Below, in pieces: positions 6,907-23,104 of a stretch of DNA of 32,000 nt. The notes beneath the pieces are model-generated. The model ran no database searches. It had not been told where the DNA came from and saw only the letters and a program-made list of their open reading frames with translations. Origin of the DNA: Anaerolinea thermophila UNI-1 (GTDB lineage: Bacteria; Chloroflexota; Anaerolineae; Anaerolineales; Anaerolineaceae); the NCBI RefSeq assembly GCF_000199675.1, contig NC_014960.1:435157-467156 (forward strand), in the 5' to 3' direction. A program made the translations under genes and the position numbers. Position 1 is the first letter of the stretch; the number at the start of each line of letters is the position of its first letter.

Positions 6907-7683
6907 TTATGCCAGCAAGACCCGAACCCCCAGTTCCTGCAGGGCAGAGATGAAACTTTCATCGGCTTCCTGGGTGGTGATGAAGGTGTGCATGCTGGTC
7001 AGGGGAGCAAGGAAGGCAGTGGAGACGCGACAGCATTTGGTGTGATCCGCCACAACGATAACCTCGCGCCCAATTTTGAGGATGGCGCGGTCGGTCATGG
7101 TTTCGGGCAGGTAATCGTTGGTCAAGCCGTGTTCCAGATCCACGGCGCGCACCCCCAGAAAGACCTTATCGGCGCGCACCTCGCTGAGGGCTTGCTCGGT
7201 GATGTGTCCGATGAAGGAGAGTTCGCTGTCGCGTAAAATCCCGCCCAGACACACCACCTGAATATGTTCCATGCCGGCAAACAGGTTGACCACCGGCAGG
7301 GAATTGGTGATGATGGTCAGCCCTTTGCGCTCGCGCAGGTGTTTGGCGATTTCCAGCACCGTCGTTCCCGAGCCAAGGAAGACGGTTTCGCCATCCTGTA
7401 CCAGGGTAGCGGCAAGCCTGCCGATGCGGGCTTTCTCATCCGCCTGCTCATGACTGCGCTCCAGCAGGGGCGGCTCCGGCGCAGCCGGTTGTAGAGGAAT
7501 AGCGCCGCCATGCACGCGCTGAATCAAGCCCTGCGAAGCCAGCGCTTCCAGGTCCCGGCGGGCAGTGGCTTCACTGACGGCAAACTCTTCGCAGATTTGG
7601 GCAATCTTCACCCGTTGCTGGCGCTGAAGCAGTGCCAGGATGGCTTGCTGACGTTCGATATTGGAAAGAGAGGGGATGTCCAT
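6907..7683 (-). CDS. DeoR-family transcriptional regulator (HTH plus DeoR C-terminal sugar-phosphate sensor domain)
   Basis: RQQAILALLQRQQRVKIAQICEEFAVSEATARRDLEALASQGLIQRVHGGA is a classic DeoR HTH, and the C-terminal half is DeoRC-like. The track start at 7692 is a TTG; an in-frame ATG at 7683 is used. Confidence 0.9.
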   Translation of the reverse strand: MDIPSLSNIERQQAILALLQRQQRVKIAQICEEFAVSEATARRDLEALASQGLIQRVHGGAIPLQPAAPEPPLLERSHEQADEKARIGRLAATLVQDGETVFLGSGTTVLEIAKHLRERKGLTIITNSLPVVNLFAGMEHIQVVCLGGILRDSELSFIGHITEQALSEVRADKVFLGVRAVDLEHGLTNDYLPETMTDRAILKIGREVIVVADHTKCCRVSTAFLAPLTSMHTFITTQEADESFISALQELGVRVLLA

Positions 7684-7689
7684 AAATTT

Positions 7690-7757
7690 CAATCACAAAC
7701 AATCAAAATCAATCAGTTTCCATCAATTATTATGGAATATTTTGCGCGAAAATACAA
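7690..7757 (-). promoter_or_regulatory. Candidate deoR-operon promoter with a helically phased pentamer operator array
   Basis: On the minus strand: TTGTAT (7757-7752), a 17-nt spacer, then CATAAT (7734-7729). Downstream of it, GATTG occurs three times at exactly 10-nt spacing (plus-strand CAATC at 7690, 7700 and 7710), immediately before the deoR ATG. Confidence 0.45.
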
Positions 7758-7782
7758 GCCCTCTGGAGGGTGATTTTTGCGC

Positions 7783-7819
7783 GTAAACAATAAAGCGGAG
7801 TCGTTATCGACTCCGCTTT
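7783..7819 (-). terminator. Rho-independent terminator after metG
   Basis: AAAGCGGAGTCG (7792-7803) pairs with CGACTCCGCTTT (7808-7819) around a 4-nt loop. On the minus strand it is followed by TTTATTGTTT. It lies 19 nt after the metG stop. Confidence 0.8.
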
Positions 7820-7838
7820 GAGATGAAAAGAAGCCTTT

Positions 7839-9635
7839 TTACGATTTTCGTTGTGCTCTCAGCCGGGCGCGTTCTTCCTCAACGATGCTGGCATCCAGTT
7901 TCTTGAAGAGCGGCTGGGGTGCCTGCAGAGGTTGTCCGGGCTGTAAGGCGCTGGGTTGCCACTTGCCGGCGGCGTCATCGGGGTCGTAGAGCAGGACGGT
8001 GTGCTCACCCAGCCCATCCTGCACCGTGCGGGTGGCTTGTTTGCCGAAGAGCGGTTTTTCATAGCCGAAGTACTGGTGCAGTTTCTCACTGCTGAAGGGC
8101 AGGAACGGCGAAAGCAGGACGGAGAGGTTGTCAATGCATCGCAGGGCGGTGTAGATGGCCCGCGCCGCCGCCTGACGGTCGGTCTTGATTTCCTTCCAGG
8201 GCGCAGTCTGATCCAGATAGCGGTTGACCTCGGTTGCCAGTGCCATGGCACTGCCCAGCGCACTGCGCAAATGCACGGCTTCCAGTTCTGCGCCTACGCT
8301 CTCAAAGCCACTTTCCACCTTGCGCAGGATTTCCTCGTCCAGTTCGGTCAGTGCGCCGGGCTCGGGGACTTTGCCCTCAAAGTGTTTGACGGCAAACGAA
8401 AGCACGCGGTTTGCCAGGTTGCCCCAGGTAGCCACCAGTTCGTCGTTGTTGCGCTTGTAGAAGTCTTCCCAGTCCCAGTCGGTATCGCGCATCTCTGGCA
8501 TGTTTACGGTCAGGTAGTAGCGCAGGGGGTCGGGGTCGTAACGCGAGAGGAAATCATGTCCCCACACTGCCCAGTTGCGGCTTCCGGAGATTTTATCGCC
8601 TTCCAGATTCATGAACTGATTGGCGGGTACATCGTAGGGCAGTACCAGTTTCTGCCCTTTCTCGCCGGCGAAAATTTCCATGAAGGTTTCGCCCATGCCC
8701 AGCAGTTGGGCGGGCCACCAGGCGGCGTGGAAGAAGATATTATCCTTTCCGATGAAGTAAATGGTGCGCGATTCGGGGTTGACCCACCAGTCCTTCCAGG
8801 CATCGCCCAGCCCGTGCAGGCGCGCCCACTCGATGGGAGCAGACAGGTAGCCGATGACGGCTTCGAACCACACATACAGGCATTTGCCTTCCCAGCCTTC
8901 CACCGGCACGGGAATGCCCCAGTCCAGGTCGCGGGTGATGGGGCGGCTCTTCAGCCCTTCGCTTTCGATTTGCCCCAGCGTCTGGTTGCACACGGTTTCG
9001 CGCCAGTAGTGCTGGCGTTCGCGCAGGAAGCGGGCGACTTCCGGCTCCAGTTTGGAGAGGTCGAGGTAGTAGTGCACGGTTTCGCGCAGTTCGGGGGTGG
9101 AACCATCCACTTTGGAGCGCGGGTTGATGAGTTTTTCCGGTTCCAGCACATTGCCGCACTTGTCGCACTGGTCACTGCGGGCGTGCTCATCGCCGCAGAT
9201 GTAGCAGGTGCCTTCGATGTAGCGGTCGGGCAGGAAGCGCCTCAGCGAGGGCGAATACCACTGCGGACGGACTTCGGTGTACAGGTAGCCGTTCTTCAGC
9301 AGGGCGAGGAACACGCTCTGCGCTACCTTGAAGTGGTTTTCGGTGTGTGTGGTGGTGAAGAGGTCGTAGGTCAGCCCCGCCTTTTGAAACAAATCCAGGA
9401 AGGACTGGTGAAAACGCTTGTACACCTCTTCCACGGGCTTACCCTCGGCATCGGCGCGCAGGGTGACCGGCGTGCCGTGCGAATCGGTGCCGGAGACCAT
9501 TAACACGCGATTGCCCTTGAGGCGGTGGTAGCGGGCGACGATATCCGCCGGCAGGTACGCGCCGGTGATGTTGCCAACGTGAATCTCAGCGTTGGCGTAG
9601 GGCCAGGCAACAGCAATCAGGACAGGTGTGGACAT
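7839..9635 (-). CDS. metG: Methionine--tRNA ligase
   Basis: 598 aa from the ATG at 9635 (MSTPVLIAVAWPYANAEIHVGN..., HIGH-type motif). Zn knuckle CYICGDEHARSDQCDKCG. A KISGSRNW stretch at the position expected for the KMSKS loop. GAGGT SD. The track N-terminal extension to 9689 was rejected. Confidence 0.97.
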   Translation of the reverse strand: MSTPVLIAVAWPYANAEIHVGNITGAYLPADIVARYHRLKGNRVLMVSGTDSHGTPVTLRADAEGKPVEEVYKRFHQSFLDLFQKAGLTYDLFTTTHTENHFKVAQSVFLALLKNGYLYTEVRPQWYSPSLRRFLPDRYIEGTCYICGDEHARSDQCDKCGNVLEPEKLINPRSKVDGSTPELRETVHYYLDLSKLEPEVARFLRERQHYWRETVCNQTLGQIESEGLKSRPITRDLDWGIPVPVEGWEGKCLYVWFEAVIGYLSAPIEWARLHGLGDAWKDWWVNPESRTIYFIGKDNIFFHAAWWPAQLLGMGETFMEIFAGEKGQKLVLPYDVPANQFMNLEGDKISGSRNWAVWGHDFLSRYDPDPLRYYLTVNMPEMRDTDWDWEDFYKRNNDELVATWGNLANRVLSFAVKHFEGKVPEPGALTELDEEILRKVESGFESVGAELEAVHLRSALGSAMALATEVNRYLDQTAPWKEIKTDRQAAARAIYTALRCIDNLSVLLSPFLPFSSEKLHQYFGYEKPLFGKQATRTVQDGLGEHTVLLYDPDDAAGKWQPSALQPGQPLQAPQPLFKKLDASIVEEERARLRAQRKS

Positions 9636-9668
9636 AAGGTAACCTCGACAAAGACATAATTTTTTCAG

Positions 9669-9700
9669 AAATGAAAACCCGGCGGGCACCGCCAGCCGGG
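9669..9700 (-). terminator. Attenuator terminator inside the metG leader
   Basis: Minus strand reads CCCGGCTGGC-GGT-GCCCGCCGGG (9 of 10 bp paired) followed by TTTTCATTT. It ends about 33 nt upstream of the metG ATG. Confidence 0.65.
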
Positions 9701-9720
9701 CTGCAGGTTCGTTCTGTGGG

Positions 9721-9798
9721 CTACGCAGCCAGAACCGGCGGTGAGATGGTTCTCCCGCGCATCATCATGCCACGCATGCCCATAAGTAAGAGTCCCAT
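9721..9798 (-). CDS. Candidate Met-rich leader peptide (25 aa) of a metG transcription attenuator
   Basis: Minus strand: GAGGG SD, 6 nt, then ATG GGA CTC TTA CTT ATG GGC ATG CGT GGC ATG ATG ATG CGC GGG AGA ACC ATC TCA CCG CCG GTT CTG GCT GCG TAG = MGLLLMGMRGMMMRGRTISPPVLAA. It contains 6 Met codons, three of them consecutive. The 3' end of the ORF forms one strand of an antiterminator helix. Confidence 0.5.
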   Translation of the reverse strand: MGLLLMGMRGMMMRGRTISPPVLAA

Positions 9799-9817
9799 GG
9801 TTAACCCTCGTGGGCGT

Positions 9818-9846
9818 ATGATAGCACAAAAGTTATCTCCGGGCAA
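9818..9846 (-). promoter_or_regulatory. Candidate sigma-70 promoter for the metG leader
   Basis: Minus strand: TTGCCC (9846-9841), a 17-nt spacer, then TGc-TATCAT (extended -10; hexamer 9823-9818). The predicted TSS lies just upstream of the leader-peptide SD. Confidence 0.4.
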
Positions 9847-9871
9847 TGAAAACTCTCCATCAATCTTGCGG

Positions 9872-10474
9872 TCATGGGGCGCCAAGGGGAATCCCGAGGC
9901 TTTTGAGCCACTGGAAGAGCGGGTCAAACGCCTGAGGTCCAAAGAATACCAGAATGGCAATGATGGCAATGAAGAGCAAGACCAGGAAAATCAGGGTGTA
10001 GAAGATGAAGTCGTTTTCAAAAAAGCCTTTTTCCGGTTTTTCCTCGGCGCGCGGCTGGGTATTGCGTTCCAGGTAGGCAAATTCATCCCCAGTTCTGGGG
10101 GTGACCGGTCGGGTGGCTTCAGTGGCAATGCGGTATTCCAGCGAGGGTGCGTCTTCTTCTTCCAGTGCGGGCATCATGCCCTTTTCCAGGGCTTGCATGT
10201 CCTCTTCCGGGAAGGGCGGTGGAGTGCCCTCCATATAAGCCGAGCGGTTTTCCAGGGCTTTGAGGGCGGCAATGGCTTCCGGATCTCGAGGATTCAGACG
10301 CAAGACGTTGTCCCAGCATTCGCGGATTTCATCCGGGTTGGTGAGCGCATGTGCCAGTAACCGCCAGGCATGGATATTGTCCATATCCATGCTGAGGATG
10401 CGCTCCAGTTCGCGGGCAGCATTTTCACGGTCGCCCTGTTCCAGATACATGCTTGCCAGATAAAGTTCGCTCAT
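9872..10474 (-). CDS. TPR-like protein with an acidic linker and a C-terminal transmembrane anchor (function unknown)
   Basis: 200 aa. N-terminus is TPR-like (LASMYLEQGDRENAARELERILSMDMDNIHAWRLLAHAL). One hydrophobic helix lies near the C-terminus (FIFYTLIFLVLLFIAIIAILVFF). G-rich SD. Starts 43 nt after the rpoD stop. Confidence 0.6.
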   Translation of the reverse strand: MSELYLASMYLEQGDRENAARELERILSMDMDNIHAWRLLAHALTNPDEIRECWDNVLRLNPRDPEAIAALKALENRSAYMEGTPPPFPEEDMQALEKGMMPALEEEDAPSLEYRIATEATRPVTPRTGDEFAYLERNTQPRAEEKPEKGFFENDFIFYTLIFLVLLFIAIIAILVFFGPQAFDPLFQWLKSLGIPLGAP

Positions 10475-10517
10475 CCCCCCTCCCCTCTCGTTTGCAGTTG
10501 TGTCTTGCTACTCTCTA

Positions 10518-11708
10518 TTATAGATAATCTTTCAACTGGCGCGCACGGCGCGGATGGCGCAATCGCCGCAGGGCTTTATTTTCAATTTGACGGATGCGTT
10601 CGCGGGTCAAGCCAAATTTCTGCCCTACCTCTTCCAGGGTGTAGGTGCGCCCGTTTTCCAGTCCAAAGCGCAGACGCAGAATACGCGCCTCGCGGGCGGG
10701 CAGGGTGTCCAGTACTTCCTGAATCTTTTCGCGCAAGAGGTTGCTATAGGTAGTTTGCATGGGGGAAGGTGTCACCTGGTCTTCGATGAATTGCCCCAGT
10801 TCCGAGTCTTCTTCATCTTCGTTGATGGGACTTTCCAGCGAAAGCGGCAACCATGAGACCCGCATCATCCAGTCCACTTTGGAGGCTTTAATGCCGATGG
10901 CATCCGCCAGTTCTTCGTTGGTCGGGGTGCGCCCCAGTTTTTGCTCCATCTCGTGGGTGGTGCGGTACAGACGGCGGATGCGATCCACCATGTGCACCGG
11001 CACGCGGATGGTGCGCCCCTGGTCGGCAATTGAGCGGGTGATGGTCTGACGAATCCACCAGGTGGCATAGGTAGAAAAGCGAAAGCCGCGCTGATACTCG
11101 TACTTCTCCACGGCTTTCATCAATCCCAGATTGCCTTCCTGAATCAAGTCCAGGAACGGCACCCCCCTGCCGATGTAACGTTTGGCGATGGAGACAACCA
11201 GGCGGGTATTGGCTTTGATCAAATGCTCACGGGCACTTTCGCCATCCTGAATTTGGGCTTCCAGTTCGCCGCGACGCTGAGGGGACAGGCGTGCGCTATT
11301 GCGAGTGAGTTCTTTCTTTGCCGCGCGCCCGCGTTCGATGCGCTTTGCCAGTTCCACCTCTTCTTCACTGGAAAGCAGGGGAACGCGCGACATTTCTTTG
11401 AGATACAGTCCAACGGTATCATCGCTGGAAATGCGGTTAAGGTCAAAGGTCTGTACGGGGTCTTCTTCAATGAAGGCTCCGTCAATGTCTTCATCAGGGA
11501 AGGGGTATTCGTTTTCTTCGGTGTCGTAAATATCCACGCCATGGCGGCGCAGTGCCAGCAGAATGGCTTCAAAGCGTTCATGATCCTCACCGACGTTGGG
11601 ATAGGCTTCCATCAGGTCTTCTGTGGTCAGATATCCCTGTACATCGGCTTTTTCCAACAACATCTTGAGGATCTCGGTCCCCCGTTTATTGCTTCCCGGA
11701 CTTGCCAT
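10518..11708 (-). CDS. rpoD: Primary RNA polymerase sigma factor (sigma-70/SigA)
   Basis: Regions 1.2 to 4.2 are recognisable: [66 protein letters not shown], and [41 protein letters not shown]. Confidence 0.95.
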
Positions 11709-19564: not shown

Positions 19565-19596
19565 GAAAAAACAGGGCTGTCATTGCGACAGCCCTG
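19565..19596 (-). terminator. Rho-independent terminator after the amino-acid ABC operon
   Basis: CAGGGCTGTC (19572-19581) pairs with GACAGCCCTG (19587-19596) around a 5-nt loop. It is followed on the minus strand by TTTTTT. Confidence 0.85.
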
Positions 19597-19604
19597 AGTG
19601 TATC

Positions 19605-20333
19605 CTACAACACTTTGCTCAGGAAGAGTTTGGTGCGTTCCTGAGTGGGGTTGCTGAAAATGACGCTGGGCGGACCTTCCTCGATGATGACCCCGCCATC
19701 CATGAAGATAACGCGGTCGGCGGCGTTGCGTGAAAAGCCCATCTCGTGGGAGACCACCACCATGGTCATGCCCTCACGCGCCAGCTGGAGCATTACATCC
19801 AGCACTTCCTGAATCATCTCGGGATCCAGCGCGCTGGTGGGTTCGTCAAAGAGCATGATTTTGGGGTTCATTGCCAGGGCGCGGGCAATGGCAACGCGCT
19901 GTTGCTGTCCGCCGGAGAGTTGGGCAGGATAAGCATGGGCTTTTTCGGGAATGCCCACCTTTTCCAGCAAATCCATGGCAATTTTGACGGCTTCGCTGTC
20001 GGAGCGCTTGCGCACGATTTTTTGCGCCAGGGTGATGTTTTCCAGCACGCTCAGGTGCGGAAAGAGGTTGAACTGCTGGAAGACCATGCCTACTTCGGTG
20101 CGCACGGCGTTGATGTTCTCCGCGCTGTCCAGCGGGATGCCATCCACCACGATGCGCCCTTTGTCGAACTCTTCCAGGCGGTTGATACAGCGCAACAGGG
20201 TAGATTTGCCCGAGCCTGAGGGACCGATAATGACCACCACCTCGCCTTTTTGCACGTCCAGGCTGACGCCGCGCAGGGCATGCACTCTGCCAAAATACTT
20301 GTGTACGTTTTCAATGTGGATAATTGGTTCCAT
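19605..20333 (-). CDS. Polar amino-acid ABC transporter ATP-binding protein (PAAT family, GlnQ/HisP-like)
   Basis: 242 aa. Walker [10 protein letters not shown], signature [15 protein letters not shown], Walker [13 protein letters not shown]. Confidence 0.93.
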
Positions 20334-20335
20334 GG

Positions 20336-21160
20336 TTAGCGCTCCTTGCTCATGCGGGCTTCAATCATGGCGACCACCCGCGCGCTCAGCAGGGTCATGA
20401 TCAGGTACATCAGCCCAATCATCAGGTAGATATGCAGGGGCAGGGGGGTGATCGCCTGAAATTCGCGCCCGCGGCGGGTCAGGTCGGCAACTGCCACGGC
20501 ACTGACCAGCGAGGAATCTTTCAGCAGGGTGATGAACTCATTGCCCACCGGCGGCAGGATGACGCGGATGGCTTGCGGCAGGATGATGTAGCGCATTGCC
20601 TGGAAGTAGGTCATTCCCAGACTGCGCGCCGCTTCCATTTGCCCTTTGGGGATGCTCTGGATGCCCGCACGGTACACTTCGGTCATGTAAGCACCGTAGC
20701 ACAGTGTCAGCCCGGCGATTGCCATGACATATGGGTTGGCAACGAAGTTCTTCATGCTTTCAACGTTCCACTGTGTGCCCAGATCGCGCACGATGGAAGG
20801 GAAGGCGTAGTACCAGAAGTACAACTGCACCAGCAGGGGGATGCCGCGCACGACTTCCACATACAGCGTAGCCAGCCCGCGCAGAGGGGCGATGTGGGTT
20901 AGCCGTCCCAGCGCACCGATGATGCCCACGACCAGCACCAGCCCGAAGGTCACCAGCGTCACCATGACGGTGACCCGCAGACCATCCAGCACGAAGCGGA
21001 AGATGCGGTCGAAGGGGTTGCCCACCACCAGCACGAGGATGGCAAGCAGTGCCGAAGCCGCCAGGACTAACAGCCAGCCCGCATCCCAGCGGAAGACGTT
21101 TTCGTTCCCGCGAATGGTGGGAAGATGGGGATCAACTTCAGCAGGGGTTGAGGTACTCAT
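20336..21160 (-). CDS. Polar amino-acid ABC transporter permease (His/Glu/Gln/Arg/opine family)
   Basis: 274 aa. Conserved [35 protein letters not shown] loop. The stop lies 2 nt before the ATPase start. Confidence 0.9.
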
Positions 21161-21207
21161 GAGATTTCAGATGGCTCCAGGTGGGGAAAATCTTGATTTT
21201 ATTATAA

Positions 21208-21235
21208 CAAAAGGTCGGTGTTGCCCGACCTTTTG
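21208..21235 (-). promoter_or_regulatory. Intra-operon terminator-like hairpin between the binding-protein and permease genes
   Basis: CAAAAGGTCGG (21208-21218) pairs with CCGACCTTTTG (21225-21235) around a 6-nt loop. On the minus strand the stem runs into TTTTGTTATAATAAAAT. Confidence 0.6.
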
Positions 21236-21256
21236 TGAAGTCTATCGTTGTGGGGC

Positions 21257-22012
21257 TTACTTTCCCGCCAGCCACTTCTCTTCCAGTTTCTTGATGGTTC
21301 CATCCTCTTTAAGGGCTTTGATGGCGGCGTTCACTTGCGGGATGAGGTCGGCTTTCTTCTTGCAGAAAGCCACGCCGTAATTCTCATCGGTGAAGACCTC
21401 GCCGACCGTCTTGAGTTTGTCGGGGTTGGTGGCGAGGAATGCGAGGGTGGTGGGGTAATCGGCAATCACGGCGTCAATCTGCCCGTTTGCCAGATCAAGG
21501 AAAGCCTGATCGTACGAGTCATAGGTTTTCACTTCGGCGCCTTCAATCTTCTCGGCTTCAATGGCGCCGGTGGTGCCCAACTGCGCGCCGATTTTCTTGC
21601 CTTTCAGGTCATTCTTCCCGCTGATGTCGGTGGTTTCTTTGCGCACGGTGACAATCTGACCGGCGTTGATGTACGGGTCAGAGAAGTCCATCGAGGCTTT
21701 GCGTTCCTCGGTGATGGTAATGGCGGCAATGGCCATGTCGTACTGGCACTCGGCGATGCCCGCCAGCATGGGGTCGAAGCCAACGTTAATCCACTCCACC
21801 TCAAAACCGGCTTTTTGGGCGATGGCGTTCATCAATTCCACGTCAAAACCGGTGAGTTGTTTCGTGTTTTCATCTACCATTTCGAAGGGCGGGAATGTGG
21901 CATCGGTGGCAACACGCACTTTGGTTTTTTCGCTCGGCTGGGCGGGGGTGCAAGCCGAAAACACCAGCGCCATAATGAGCATCGCCCAAAGGATCACAGA
22001 AAAGCGCTTCAT
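21257..22012 (-). CDS. Polar amino-acid ABC transporter substrate-binding lipoprotein (SBP family 3)
   Basis: Start trimmed from 22189 to the ATG at 22012, which follows GGAAGGAG. Signal peptide MKRFSVILWAMLIMALVFSAC with a lipobox. Family-3 core VATDATFPPFEMVDE...GFDVELMNAIA...DMAIAAITITEERK. Confidence 0.9.
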   Translation of the reverse strand: MKRFSVILWAMLIMALVFSACTPAQPSEKTKVRVATDATFPPFEMVDENTKQLTGFDVELMNAIAQKAGFEVEWINVGFDPMLAGIAECQYDMAIAAITITEERKASMDFSDPYINAGQIVTVRKETTDISGKNDLKGKKIGAQLGTTGAIEAEKIEGAEVKTYDSYDQAFLDLANGQIDAVIADYPTTLAFLATNPDKLKTVGEVFTDENYGVAFCKKKADLIPQVNAAIKALKEDGTIKKLEEKWLAGK

Positions 22013-22126
22013 CTTTTGTCTCCTTCCAATTGGCTGGAAATTCATGCAGGATATGGTAATGATTATAGCAGAGATTCTAAATGGCTCAGTCGCCATGTCA
22101 GCCTTTAGAGGAAAGAAGATAAACCA

Positions 22127-22135
22127 TGTTAGAAT
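22127..22135 (+). promoter_or_regulatory. Extended -10 promoter (TGtTAGAAT) placed for a leaderless proline dehydrogenase mRNA
   Basis: TG at 22127-22128 and TAGAAT at 22130-22135. Only 6 nt (AAAAAC) separate the hexamer from the ATG at 22142. There is no SD. Confidence 0.4.
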
Positions 22136-22141
22136 AAAAAC

Positions 22142-23104
22142 ATGTTCAGAGCGTTCTTTGTGTCTCTCTCCCGAGCCACATGGGCTCAAAAATGGATTAC
22201 CCGTCTACCGGTGGCGCGCCAGGCCGCCGCCCGTTTTGTTGCCGGTGAAACGCAGGCAGAAGCCCTGCAGGCAGTGCGTCAACTCAACCAGCGCGGCATC
22301 CTTGCCACGCTGGATCATCTCGGCGAGTCCACCACCCGCGCCAGCGATGCCCAACAGGCGACCGCGGAGATTCTCTCTCTGCTGGATGCCATTCAGCAGG
22401 CGGGGGTGCAAGCCAATGTTTCCATCAAACTCAGTCAAATTGGGCTGGCGGTAGACCCGGCACTGTGTGAAGCCAACCTGTGGAAAATTTTGGAGAAAGC
22501 CAGAGATCTGGGTAACTTTGTGCGCATTGACATGGAAGATTCCTCTCTCACCCAGCGCACGCTTGACCTCTACCTCAAGGCGCTGGTCAGCGGCTTTGCC
22601 GATCATGTGGGCATTGTCCTGCAAGCCTACCTCTACCGCACCGAAGCCGACCTGACCCGCGTGCTGACGGCAGGCGGACGGGTGCGCCTGTGCAAGGGGG
22701 CGTACAAAGAACCGTCCACGCTGGCGTTTTCCCGCAAAGCAGATGTTAACTTGAATTACGATCAACTGGCACTGCAGATGCTGCGCCATACCCTGCGGCA
22801 TGGCACACCGCAGGTCTCTGCCGATGGACGCACTCCGCCCATTCCGGCGCTGGCAACCCATGACCCTCAGCGCATCCGCTTTGCCCGCCAGGCAGTCGAG
22901 GAACTGTATCTCCCTAAACGGGCGGTAGAATTTCAAATGCTTTATGGCATCCGCCGCGATTTGCAGGAAAGCCTTGCCGCCGAGGGCTTCCCGGTGCGCG
23001 TCTATGTGCCTTATGGCACGCACTGGTACCCGTACTTTATGCGGCGTTTGGGCGAGCGCCCTGCTAACCTGTGGTTTTTCGTGAAGAATTTCTTCCAGCG
23101 CTGA
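22142..23104 (+). CDS. Monofunctional proline dehydrogenase (FAD-dependent, PutA PRODH-domain family)
   Basis: 320 aa. RFVAGETQAEALQAVRQLNQRGILATLDHLGE, IDMEDSS, LQAYLYRTE, VRLCKGAYKEP, FQMLYGI and YVPYG..WYPYFMRRLGERPANL match the PRODH barrel pattern. Confidence 0.88.
   Translation: MFRAFFVSLSRATWAQKWITRLPVARQAAARFVAGETQAEALQAVRQLNQRGILATLDHLGESTTRASDAQQATAEILSLLDAIQQAGVQANVSIKLSQIGLAVDPALCEANLWKILEKARDLGNFVRIDMEDSSLTQRTLDLYLKALVSGFADHVGIVLQAYLYRTEADLTRVLTAGGRVRLCKGAYKEPSTLAFSRKADVNLNYDQLALQMLRHTLRHGTPQVSADGRTPPIPALATHDPQRIRFARQAVEELYLPKRAVEFQMLYGIRRDLQESLAAEGFPVRVYVPYGTHWYPYFMRRLGERPANLWFFVKNFFQR

Follow-up and report, generated by a model that had tools for sequence, protein, structure and literature searches.

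The metG gene of Anaerolinea thermophila UNI-1, which encodes methionyl-tRNA synthetase (MetRS; methionine--tRNA ligase), is preceded by a leader with a Met-codon-rich open reading frame (ORF) and an intrinsic terminator. Computational evidence makes it very probable that this leader attenuates metG transcription by a ribosome-mediated (leader-peptide) mechanism, with charged elongator Met-tRNA as the signal sensed. The window analysed was a stretch of 32,000 nucleotides (nt) of contig NC_014960.1 (positions 435,157 to 467,156 of the forward strand), and coordinates are window positions unless a related locus (L001 and so on) is named. The parts of the leader, their conservation across the order Anaerolineales, their association with metG and their alternative pairings were established computationally.

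Parts and predicted folds of the metG leader

All sequence features listed in the original prediction were present on the minus strand, at the coordinates given for them here:

9841..9846, minus strand: -35 hexamer TTGCCC of the leader promoter (promoter scan)
9818..9826, minus strand: extended -10 element TGcTATCAT of the leader promoter, with a 17-nt spacer to the -35 hexamer (promoter scan)
9805..9809, minus strand: leader Shine-Dalgarno sequence GAGGG, 6 nt ahead of the ATG at 9798 (sequence)
9721..9798, minus strand: leader ORF MGLLLMGMRGMMMRGRTISPPVLAA, 25 codons followed by the UAG stop at 9723..9721 (sequence)
9760..9768, minus strand: AUG-AUG-AUG run, codons 11-13 of the leader ORF, the proposed regulatory codons (sequence, masked folding)
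9751..9758, minus strand: segment 1, GCGGGAGA, predicted anti-antiterminator (RNAfold and alignment A1)
9725..9746, minus strand: segment 2, UCUCACCGCC-GGUUCU-GGCUGC, the last 8 codons of the leader ORF, with segment 1 or segment 3 as alternative partners
9687..9704, minus strand: segment 3, GCAGCC-CGGCU-GGCGGUG, serving as antiterminator 3' strand or, alternatively, as terminator 5' arm and loop
9678..9700, minus strand: intrinsic terminator CCCGGCUGGC-GGU-GCCCGCCGGG, stem of 9700..9691 with 9687..9678 and loop GGU
9669..9677, minus strand: U tract UUUUCAUUU of the terminator, directly after the stem
9643..9646, minus strand: metG Shine-Dalgarno sequence GAGG (sequence)
7839..9635, minus strand: metG, methionine--tRNA ligase of 598 amino acids, start ATG at 9635

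The leader promoter was the sole promoter-like site found by the promoter scan on the minus strand in 7500..11000. Its 17-nt spacing was also read in the sequences of L001 and L013, and the -10 element TGCTATCAT was kept in every member of the window subgroup (the window, L001, L005, L013, L014, L020 and L085, the seven sequences of alignment A1), with the variant TGCTATGAT in L085. The leader Shine-Dalgarno sequence had counterparts in L001 (GAGG) and L005 (AAGAGG). By spacing, the transcript of the window leader is predicted not to be leaderless, as 19 nt including GAGGG separate the -10 box from the ATG. Six of the 25 codons of the leader ORF were AUG, including those at 9783..9781 and 9777..9775 (minus strand) besides the run of three. 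The terminator had 9 pairs with one U/C mismatch and a predicted energy of -16.5 kcal/mol. In the competing antiterminator, CACCGCC/GGUUCU/GGCUGC (9743..9725) against GCAGCC/CGGCU/GGCGGUG (9704..9687), all 13 of the 13 proposed pairs were Watson-Crick, as had been claimed.

The identification of the downstream gene as metG was also borne out, with a score of 481 bits to the NCBIfam equivalog-domain model TIGR00398 (cut-off 336). Homologues aligned from residue 1 of the product that starts at ATG 9635, and the U tract lay 33 nt from this ATG. The longest metG ORF (616 amino acids, 7839..9689, minus strand) opens at a GTG at 9689 within the terminator stem; the exact 598-residue product was absent from the gene-position collection, and the longer start may be the one called by annotation pipelines.

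The minimum-free-energy fold of the full leader consisted of a long helix and the terminator, and in the long helix the Met-codon region and GCGGGAGA (9758..9751) were paired with UCUCACCGC...GGCUGCGUAGCCC. The original prediction had let an extra AGAACC (9753..9748) compete for GGUUCU. This pairing is possible, but the helix between segments 1 and 2 (1:2) that was both predicted and conserved was that of GCGGGAGA with UCUCACCGC (9746..9738).

The position of the ribosome was imitated by folding from successive 5' ends (9798 to 9708) up to 9669. With free 5' ends at 9753..9744 all 13 antiterminator pairs (CACCGCC:GGCGGUG and GGCUGC:GCAGCC) formed and the terminator was lost. A single separate upstream end, 9768, likewise yielded the antiterminator, and the terminator was kept with the remaining ends tested. 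A ribosome covers about 13 nt past the first base of the A-site codon, as toeprinting and footprinting have shown; when the second or third of the three AUGs occupies the A site, the leading edge would therefore be at about 9752..9749, inside the antiterminator range. The A site on the AUG run was the sole ribosome state in which the antiterminator was the minimum-free-energy fold. With the UAG stop in the A site, the ribosome masks GGCUGC and leaves the terminator free to form, and the terminator also formed in the no-ribosome state of the window. Masked folding, a thermodynamic model, thus reproduced the stalling logic first proposed, with the antiterminator predicted for a ribosome waiting on the AUG run and the terminator for a ribosome at the stop codon.

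Recurrence of the leader in Anaerolineales

Two collections were searched and the best 80 matches of each were taken: a genome set of 80 Anaerolineales loci retrieved by the MetRS protein (68-94% identity) and a metagenome set of 80 loci retrieved by the N-terminal 250 residues of MetRS (75-95% identity). In total, 158 orthologous Anaerolineales metG loci were compared, and the closest genome locus was that of an Anaerolinea thermophila metagenome-assembled genome with 94% MetRS identity. Loci were called leader-positive if they had a short ORF in which 8 codons included 3 or more Met, and if a G+C-rich hairpin with a U tract came after it. Such a leader was found in 96 of the 158 loci (91 distinct leaders), which upheld the expected conservation of a Met-rich short ORF and terminator upstream of metG. 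ATG was the most enriched codon upstream of metG and no other codon came near it. Of 79 regions covering the 400 nt ahead of metG, 34 contained a stop-free window of 8 codons with at least 4 ATG; the counts were 9 among 2094 control segments taken from elsewhere in these loci and 2 among the 79 reverse complements. Where Met-rich ORFs occurred elsewhere in the loci, inspection by eye showed no G+C-rich hairpin and U tract of the metG-leader kind after them. The upstream neighbour of the leader varied among the leader-positive genome loci (rpoD in 12 of 36, the TPR gene in 2 of 36), which suggests that the element travels with metG.

About a dozen further loci had the leader layout with two Met codons (e.g. 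LMAMP, MRIMG and MCLMG), so that the range of regulatory codons in the family would be 2 to 9. The same ORF, terminator and spacing with two Met codons were seen in L021, L048, L098, L100, L110, L119, L133, L134, L140, L146 and L153. In L095 (about 640-700) the leader was shortened to MRMMGVI before its stop, 58 nt ahead of the terminator, where relatives have MRMMGFIQRAWATN..., and the aligned metG start was GTG instead of ATG; this may be a decaying or mis-sequenced copy.

The leader ORFs showed signs of translation. Across the 96 leader-positive loci, ATG triplets within the leader ORFs were distributed over frames 0, 1 and 2 as 403:22:22, and the leader stop lay 20-32 nt from the terminator stem in 91 of them. 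The lengths of the leader ORFs and the residues between the Met codons differed widely among relatives, and the distance from the terminator to the metG ATG ranged from 22 to 249 nt across loci, with about half of the relatives at 60 nt or less. An Arg codon, mostly CGC, followed the Met cluster by 1-3 codons in nearly all leaders (9759..9757 in the window; examples are MMMRG, MMCR, MSR and MPR). This codon may be part of the segment-1 pairing (CGCG or GCGG), or it may be a slow codon.

The leader starts were of two kinds, either led by a Shine-Dalgarno sequence or with a -10 box close to the ATG. In the window subgroup and the class with the terminator stem GGCUGCC, the -10 box was followed by about 20-27 nt containing a Shine-Dalgarno sequence. 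A -10-like box (TAAACT, TAAAAT, TACACT or TATCAT, often with TTGACA 17-18 nt upstream) ended 6-8 nt ahead of the leader ATG in 53 of the 91 distinct leaders and in 0 of 81 control windows. From this spacing a leaderless transcript is predicted for these 53 relatives, among them L013, L019, L032, L034, L038, L043, L045, L047, L058, L060, L063, L064, L066, L069, L072, L078, L080 and many of L090-L160.

Alignment A1 was used for base-pair comparison within the window subgroup. For helices 1:2 and 3:4 (the terminator stem), 92.1% of the cells were paired compared with 32-54% when the partner strand was slid, and helix 1 on its own was 94.6% paired. Three pairs of this conformation had changed on both sides, two of them G:C to A:U in helix 1:2 and one A:U to U:A in the terminator stem. 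For the antiterminator conformation (2:3), 92.3% of the cells were paired compared with 22-49% for slid partners, and the changes included one C:G pair turned into U:A (columns 32:77) and another turned into U:G (columns 31:78). The compensatory changes anticipated in the helices were therefore found, with all three helices about 92% paired. Taken alone, covariation in these sequences lends the antiterminator modest support.

Beyond the window subgroup, the terminator stems fell into four sequence classes (CCGGC..., GCUGUCC, GGCUGCC and GCUGGC), and the last codons of each leader copied the terminator 3' arm of their own class (GGRCAGC, GGCAGCC, GCCAG or CCGCC...GGCUG). Complementarity was tested in the stretch from the last Met codon to the leader stop, with flanks of equal length as controls. 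The following comparisons among loci, including the sequestration counts below, ignore kinship between the loci. At least 7 contiguous bases complementary to the terminator 5' arm were present in 54 of 89 loci compared with 13 of 89 control flanks, and the mean duplex energy was -13.6 kcal/mol for the leaders compared with -8.2 kcal/mol for the flanks. Leaders paired better with their own terminator arm than with the arms of other classes, a result reached in 0 of 5000 permutations. The between-locus permutation and the flank control were used since the single-locus shuffle z-scores of antiterminator duplexes averaged -1.5, a weak signal, and fell below -2 in 13 of 37 cases.

When the leaders were folded with the full terminator and a ribosome at the stop codon, the terminator remained intact in 88 of 91 loci. 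A co-transcriptional model was then represented by omitting segment 4, as if the polymerase were still transcribing. With this model the terminator 5' arm was sequestered at one or more Met A-site positions in 83 of 89 loci, and its paired fraction was 0.82 with the ribosome on the last Met codon and had fallen to 0.34 once the stop was reached. The no-ribosome fold, also with segment 4 omitted, sequestered the arm in 66 of 89 relatives, and the 1:2 helix was not predicted in many relatives.

No consensus structure emerged from MAFFT and RNAalifold for the GCTGCC or the GCTGTC class, as their alignments were too gappy. For the GCTGGC class the procedure gave a conserved hairpin across the leader stop and no clear antiterminator. 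This strongly conserved hairpin of 9 base pairs (bp), UUGCAGUUC-NNNGCCAGAU-GAACUGCGG, spanned the last codons and the UGA stop; its loop held the stop codon and a short antiterminator-like GCCAG, and a conserved GGGACGGUU...GCCGCC followed. The class comprised L035, L041, L045, L058, L063, L064, L108, L115, L116, L121, L122, L126, L131, L137, L141, L145, L149, L152, L156 and L158.

Known RNA families were searched with Rfam 15, for the whole window at gathering thresholds and for 9550..9950 at E ≤ 10. In the window, no T-box (RF00230), SAM riboswitch, leader-peptide or other family was found at gathering thresholds. In 9550..9950 the only hits were Transposase-2 (E 2.2) and isrG (E 5.4), both irrelevant and far under their gathering scores. 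No T-box was found in 40 leader-negative and 20 leader-positive loci, where the sole match was an unrelated cobalamin riboswitch, in agreement with the exclusion of T-box, SAM and other Rfam elements. The riboswitch (L077:2209-2356, minus strand, RF00174, 61 bits) lies just upstream of metG on the opposite strand and presumably controls a divergent gene, not metG.

Proposed mechanism and alternative explanations

In the proposed mechanism, transcription would start at the promoter 9846..9818 and the 25-codon ORF would be translated while the polymerase advances. If Met-tRNA(Met) were scarce, the A site of the ribosome would wait on the AUG run (9768..9760) and the ribosome would mask segment 1 (9758..9751). 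Segment 2 (9746..9725) would then pair with segment 3 (9704..9687), no terminator would form and transcription would read through into metG. If Met-tRNA(Met) were plentiful, the ribosome would reach the UAG (9723..9721) and mask segment 2, so that segment 3 would pair with segment 4 (9687..9678) and transcription would stop at the U tract (9677..9669). In the window, segments 1 and 2 would pair in the absence of a ribosome and the terminator would form too. The outcome would be homeostatic feedback on MetRS synthesis by its own product. We infer that ribosomes translate the ORF, that they do so in coupling with the transcribing polymerase and that termination responds to methionine.

Several observations weigh against this mechanism. 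The stability of the whole-leader fold was not unusual against shuffles (z = -1.69), and ATGATGATG, found once in the 32 kb, was also present in 27 of 100 shuffles, so that the case from the window alone is no more than suggestive. The low chance of co-occurrence argued in the original prediction had no statistical support from the window by itself; the comparative data do support it, and they are the source of better-than-chance support from sequence. Among these data, the covariation in A1 rests on about 4 independent lineages, and the covariation score of the antiterminator was reached by 66 of 500 column shuffles. The between-locus permutation, flank-control and sequestration tests ignore phylogenetic relatedness. 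The drop in sequestration towards the stop codon is partly trivial, since less upstream RNA remains for pairing. At equilibrium, with the full terminator and a masked ribosome, an antitermination window was seen in just 37 of 91 loci, because the local terminator hairpin dominates at equilibrium; the proposed switch must therefore rely on kinetics during transcription. The candidate antiterminator of the GCTGGC class is short, with about 6 bp that lie in the loop of the conserved hairpin, and shows no clear switching logic. About 45 of the 158 orthologous loci, including those of Bellilinea, Longilinea, Leptolinea, Levilinea, Ornatilinea and Thermanaerothrix, had neither leader nor terminator, which indicates that the control is dispensable. 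Finally, initiation on the leader needs formylmethionyl-tRNA (fMet-tRNA), which is itself a product of MetRS, and severe MetRS failure could thus abolish leader translation. As the no-ribosome fold terminates in the window, extreme failure could be self-defeating there; in the 66 of 89 relatives where this fold sequesters the terminator arm the default would be read-through.

An attenuator that depends on translation but reports a signal other than charged elongator Met-tRNA, such as translation capacity, initiator tRNA or formylation, or arrest by a Met-rich nascent peptide, is improbable. Leaderless initiation is sensitive to initiator tRNA and IF2, and most relatives (53 of 91) appear to be leaderless. 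The antiterminator would gain from whatever slows the ribosome on the leader, and it was predicted even without a ribosome in 66 of 89 loci. These points are met by the Met codons, whose number (2 to 9) and clustering are the sole feature common to all classes, and by the identity of the regulated gene, which is the one that charges tRNA(Met). In addition, the peptide context of the Met codons is unconserved, which argues against a specific arrest peptide.

More improbable again is that the Met-rich ORF is an independent small gene beside metG, whose peptide would for example bind metal through MxM and which would leave metG with a separate promoter. Promoter, ORF and terminator do make up a complete unit, and in many relatives the 100-249 nt between terminator and metG are enough for a promoter. 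In the window, however, the 33 nt between the U tract and the ATG contained no promoter-like site in the promoter scan and offer neither room nor a candidate for a second metG promoter, and the gap is 60 nt or less in about half of the relatives. An independent gene would need neither the spacing of 20-32 nt from stop to terminator nor a 3' end complementary to the terminator arm, and outside the Met codons and the antiterminator-encoding stretch the peptides are unconserved.

Slightly less probable than a separate gene is a switch that acts as RNA without being translated, be it a riboswitch, a divergent element of T-box type or a leader bound by a protein; the AUG repeats would then be an RNA motif. 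Terminator/antiterminator alternatives are typical of riboswitches and T-boxes too, and T-boxes govern synthetase genes in other phyla (PMC1262725, PMC9413887). Against such a switch, there was no relevant Rfam match in the window or in the 60 related loci searched, and the AUGs keep to one frame (403:22:22) in stop-free ORFs with start signals and a positioned stop. Unlike a ligand-binding aptamer, the AUG-rich stretch is unconserved in sequence and length beyond its Met codons. The least probable explanation, and a very improbable one, is a chance meeting of a spurious ORF with an ordinary terminator of the upstream rpoD/TPR unit: no terminator is present between the TPR gene stop (9872) and the leader promoter, the shuffles above show that ATGATGATG alone is not improbable and that the fold is not exceptional, but the arrangement recurs in 96 loci with differing upstream genes and the Met cluster in 34 of 79 upstream regions compared with 9 of 2094 control segments.

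Gene surroundings, known systems and implications

Upstream of the metG leader the window contains the small TPR-like gene and rpoD. Two further terminators on the minus strand were recorded:

7792..7819, minus strand: terminator after metG, 12-pair stem (terminator scan)
19574..19594, minus strand: terminator GGGCUGUCGCAAUGACAGCCC followed by U's, ending an amino-acid ABC transporter operon

The first of these (7819..7792) indicates that the metG transcription unit is monocistronic. The second ends the operon 22189..19605 (SBP_bac_3, permease and ATPase), and its stem is similar to those of the GCUGUCC-class leader terminators of relatives. Besides the metG leader, no further attenuator-like leader (a short ORF with an amino-acid run followed by a terminator) was found in the 32-kb window.

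The metG leader functions like the leader-peptide families of Rfam (Trp, His, Thr, Leu, Phe and others) yet belongs to none of them. In E. coli, pheST is preceded by pheM, a Phe-rich leader ORF with antiterminator/terminator alternatives and feedback via charged tRNA. Like pheST, metG has a leader ORF rich in cognate codons and alternative hairpins before a synthetase gene; unlike it, the codons are Met and not Phe, the organism belongs to Chloroflexota and not to the gamma-proteobacteria, and there is no sequence or Rfam relationship. The four segments of E. coli trpL (1:2 / 2:3 / 3:4) are matched as well, with the regulatory codons just ahead of segment 1, the stop codon at or in segment 2 and, as predicted for the window, a terminator that forms without translation. 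Unlike the metG leader, trpL precedes a biosynthetic operon and uses Trp codons. In many metG-leader relatives the 1:2 helix is not predicted, so that, unlike in trpL, the default without a ribosome would be read-through.

T-boxes bind uncharged tRNA directly and are untranslated. The metG leader resembles them in its aim, the sensing of tRNA charging, and in its output, a choice between terminator and antiterminator; it differs in having no RF00230 match in the window or in the 60 related loci searched. The pheST attenuator is cited as a leader-peptide attenuator at a synthetase gene, and Streptomyces has leader-peptide attenuators at trpS and leuS (PMC1262725). In S. lividans, leaderless leader peptides were described at leuS, trpS, alaS and thrS, and a putative 'metL' peptide precedes metNIQ; its internal Met codons number two and lie among Cys codons, and a clear terminator is lacking (PMC8079986). 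These leaders are similar to the metG leader in preceding synthetase genes outside the proteobacteria and in being leaderless in many cases, as predicted for 53 of the 91 metG-leader relatives, but none of theirs is at metG. The 'metL' peptide is likewise a proposed methionine-related leader peptide; unlike it, the metG leaders have up to 9 Met codons and a clear intrinsic terminator and are conserved over about 100 loci. In mycobacteria, leaderless polycysteine short ORFs act as amino-acid-responsive attenuators (bioRxiv 10.1101/834739). They share with the metG leader a short ORF enriched in a single amino acid, leaderless in metG-leader relatives, but they use Cys, occur in actinobacteria and differ from the window leader, which has a 5' untranslated region with a Shine-Dalgarno sequence.

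No leader peptide for metG was found in the literature, including Weinberg et al. 2017, and the survey by Lopatovskaya et al. 2010 (Mol Biol 44:128) may describe one. Of the isolation that the original prediction claimed for its idea, the part concerning metG therefore stands, with the Met specificity and the metG target of a leader-peptide attenuator appearing to be undescribed. The wider isolation does not stand, as leader-peptide attenuators are known for pheST, trpS, leuS, alaS and thrS and the putative 'metL' peptide has been reported.

If the metG leader is an attenuator of this kind, methionine would be added to the amino acids sensed by classical attenuation and metG to the synthetase genes so controlled, and Anaerolineae (Chloroflexota) would use ribosome-mediated attenuation where Firmicutes use T-boxes. 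The analysis also flags an unannotated small ORF and a premature terminator missed by annotation pipelines. About 100 natural variants, with 2-9 Met codons, leaderless or Shine-Dalgarno-led and with or without the 1:2 helix, are usable for studies of attenuator tuning. They bear on a question of design, since a sensor made of AUG codons depends on the same synthetase for its own initiation.

Overall, we lean slightly towards the wider view that attenuators keyed to AUG codons form an undescribed family throughout the order Anaerolineales and control the methionyl-tRNA synthetase gene. With such a family, a sensor codon identical to the translation start codon would be well supported for the first time, and the controlled enzyme would be needed both for the start of the leader (fMet-tRNA) and for its continuation (Met-tRNA). 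Relatives without the 1:2 helix would default to read-through when initiation fails and would thereby avoid a self-defeating 'superattenuation'.

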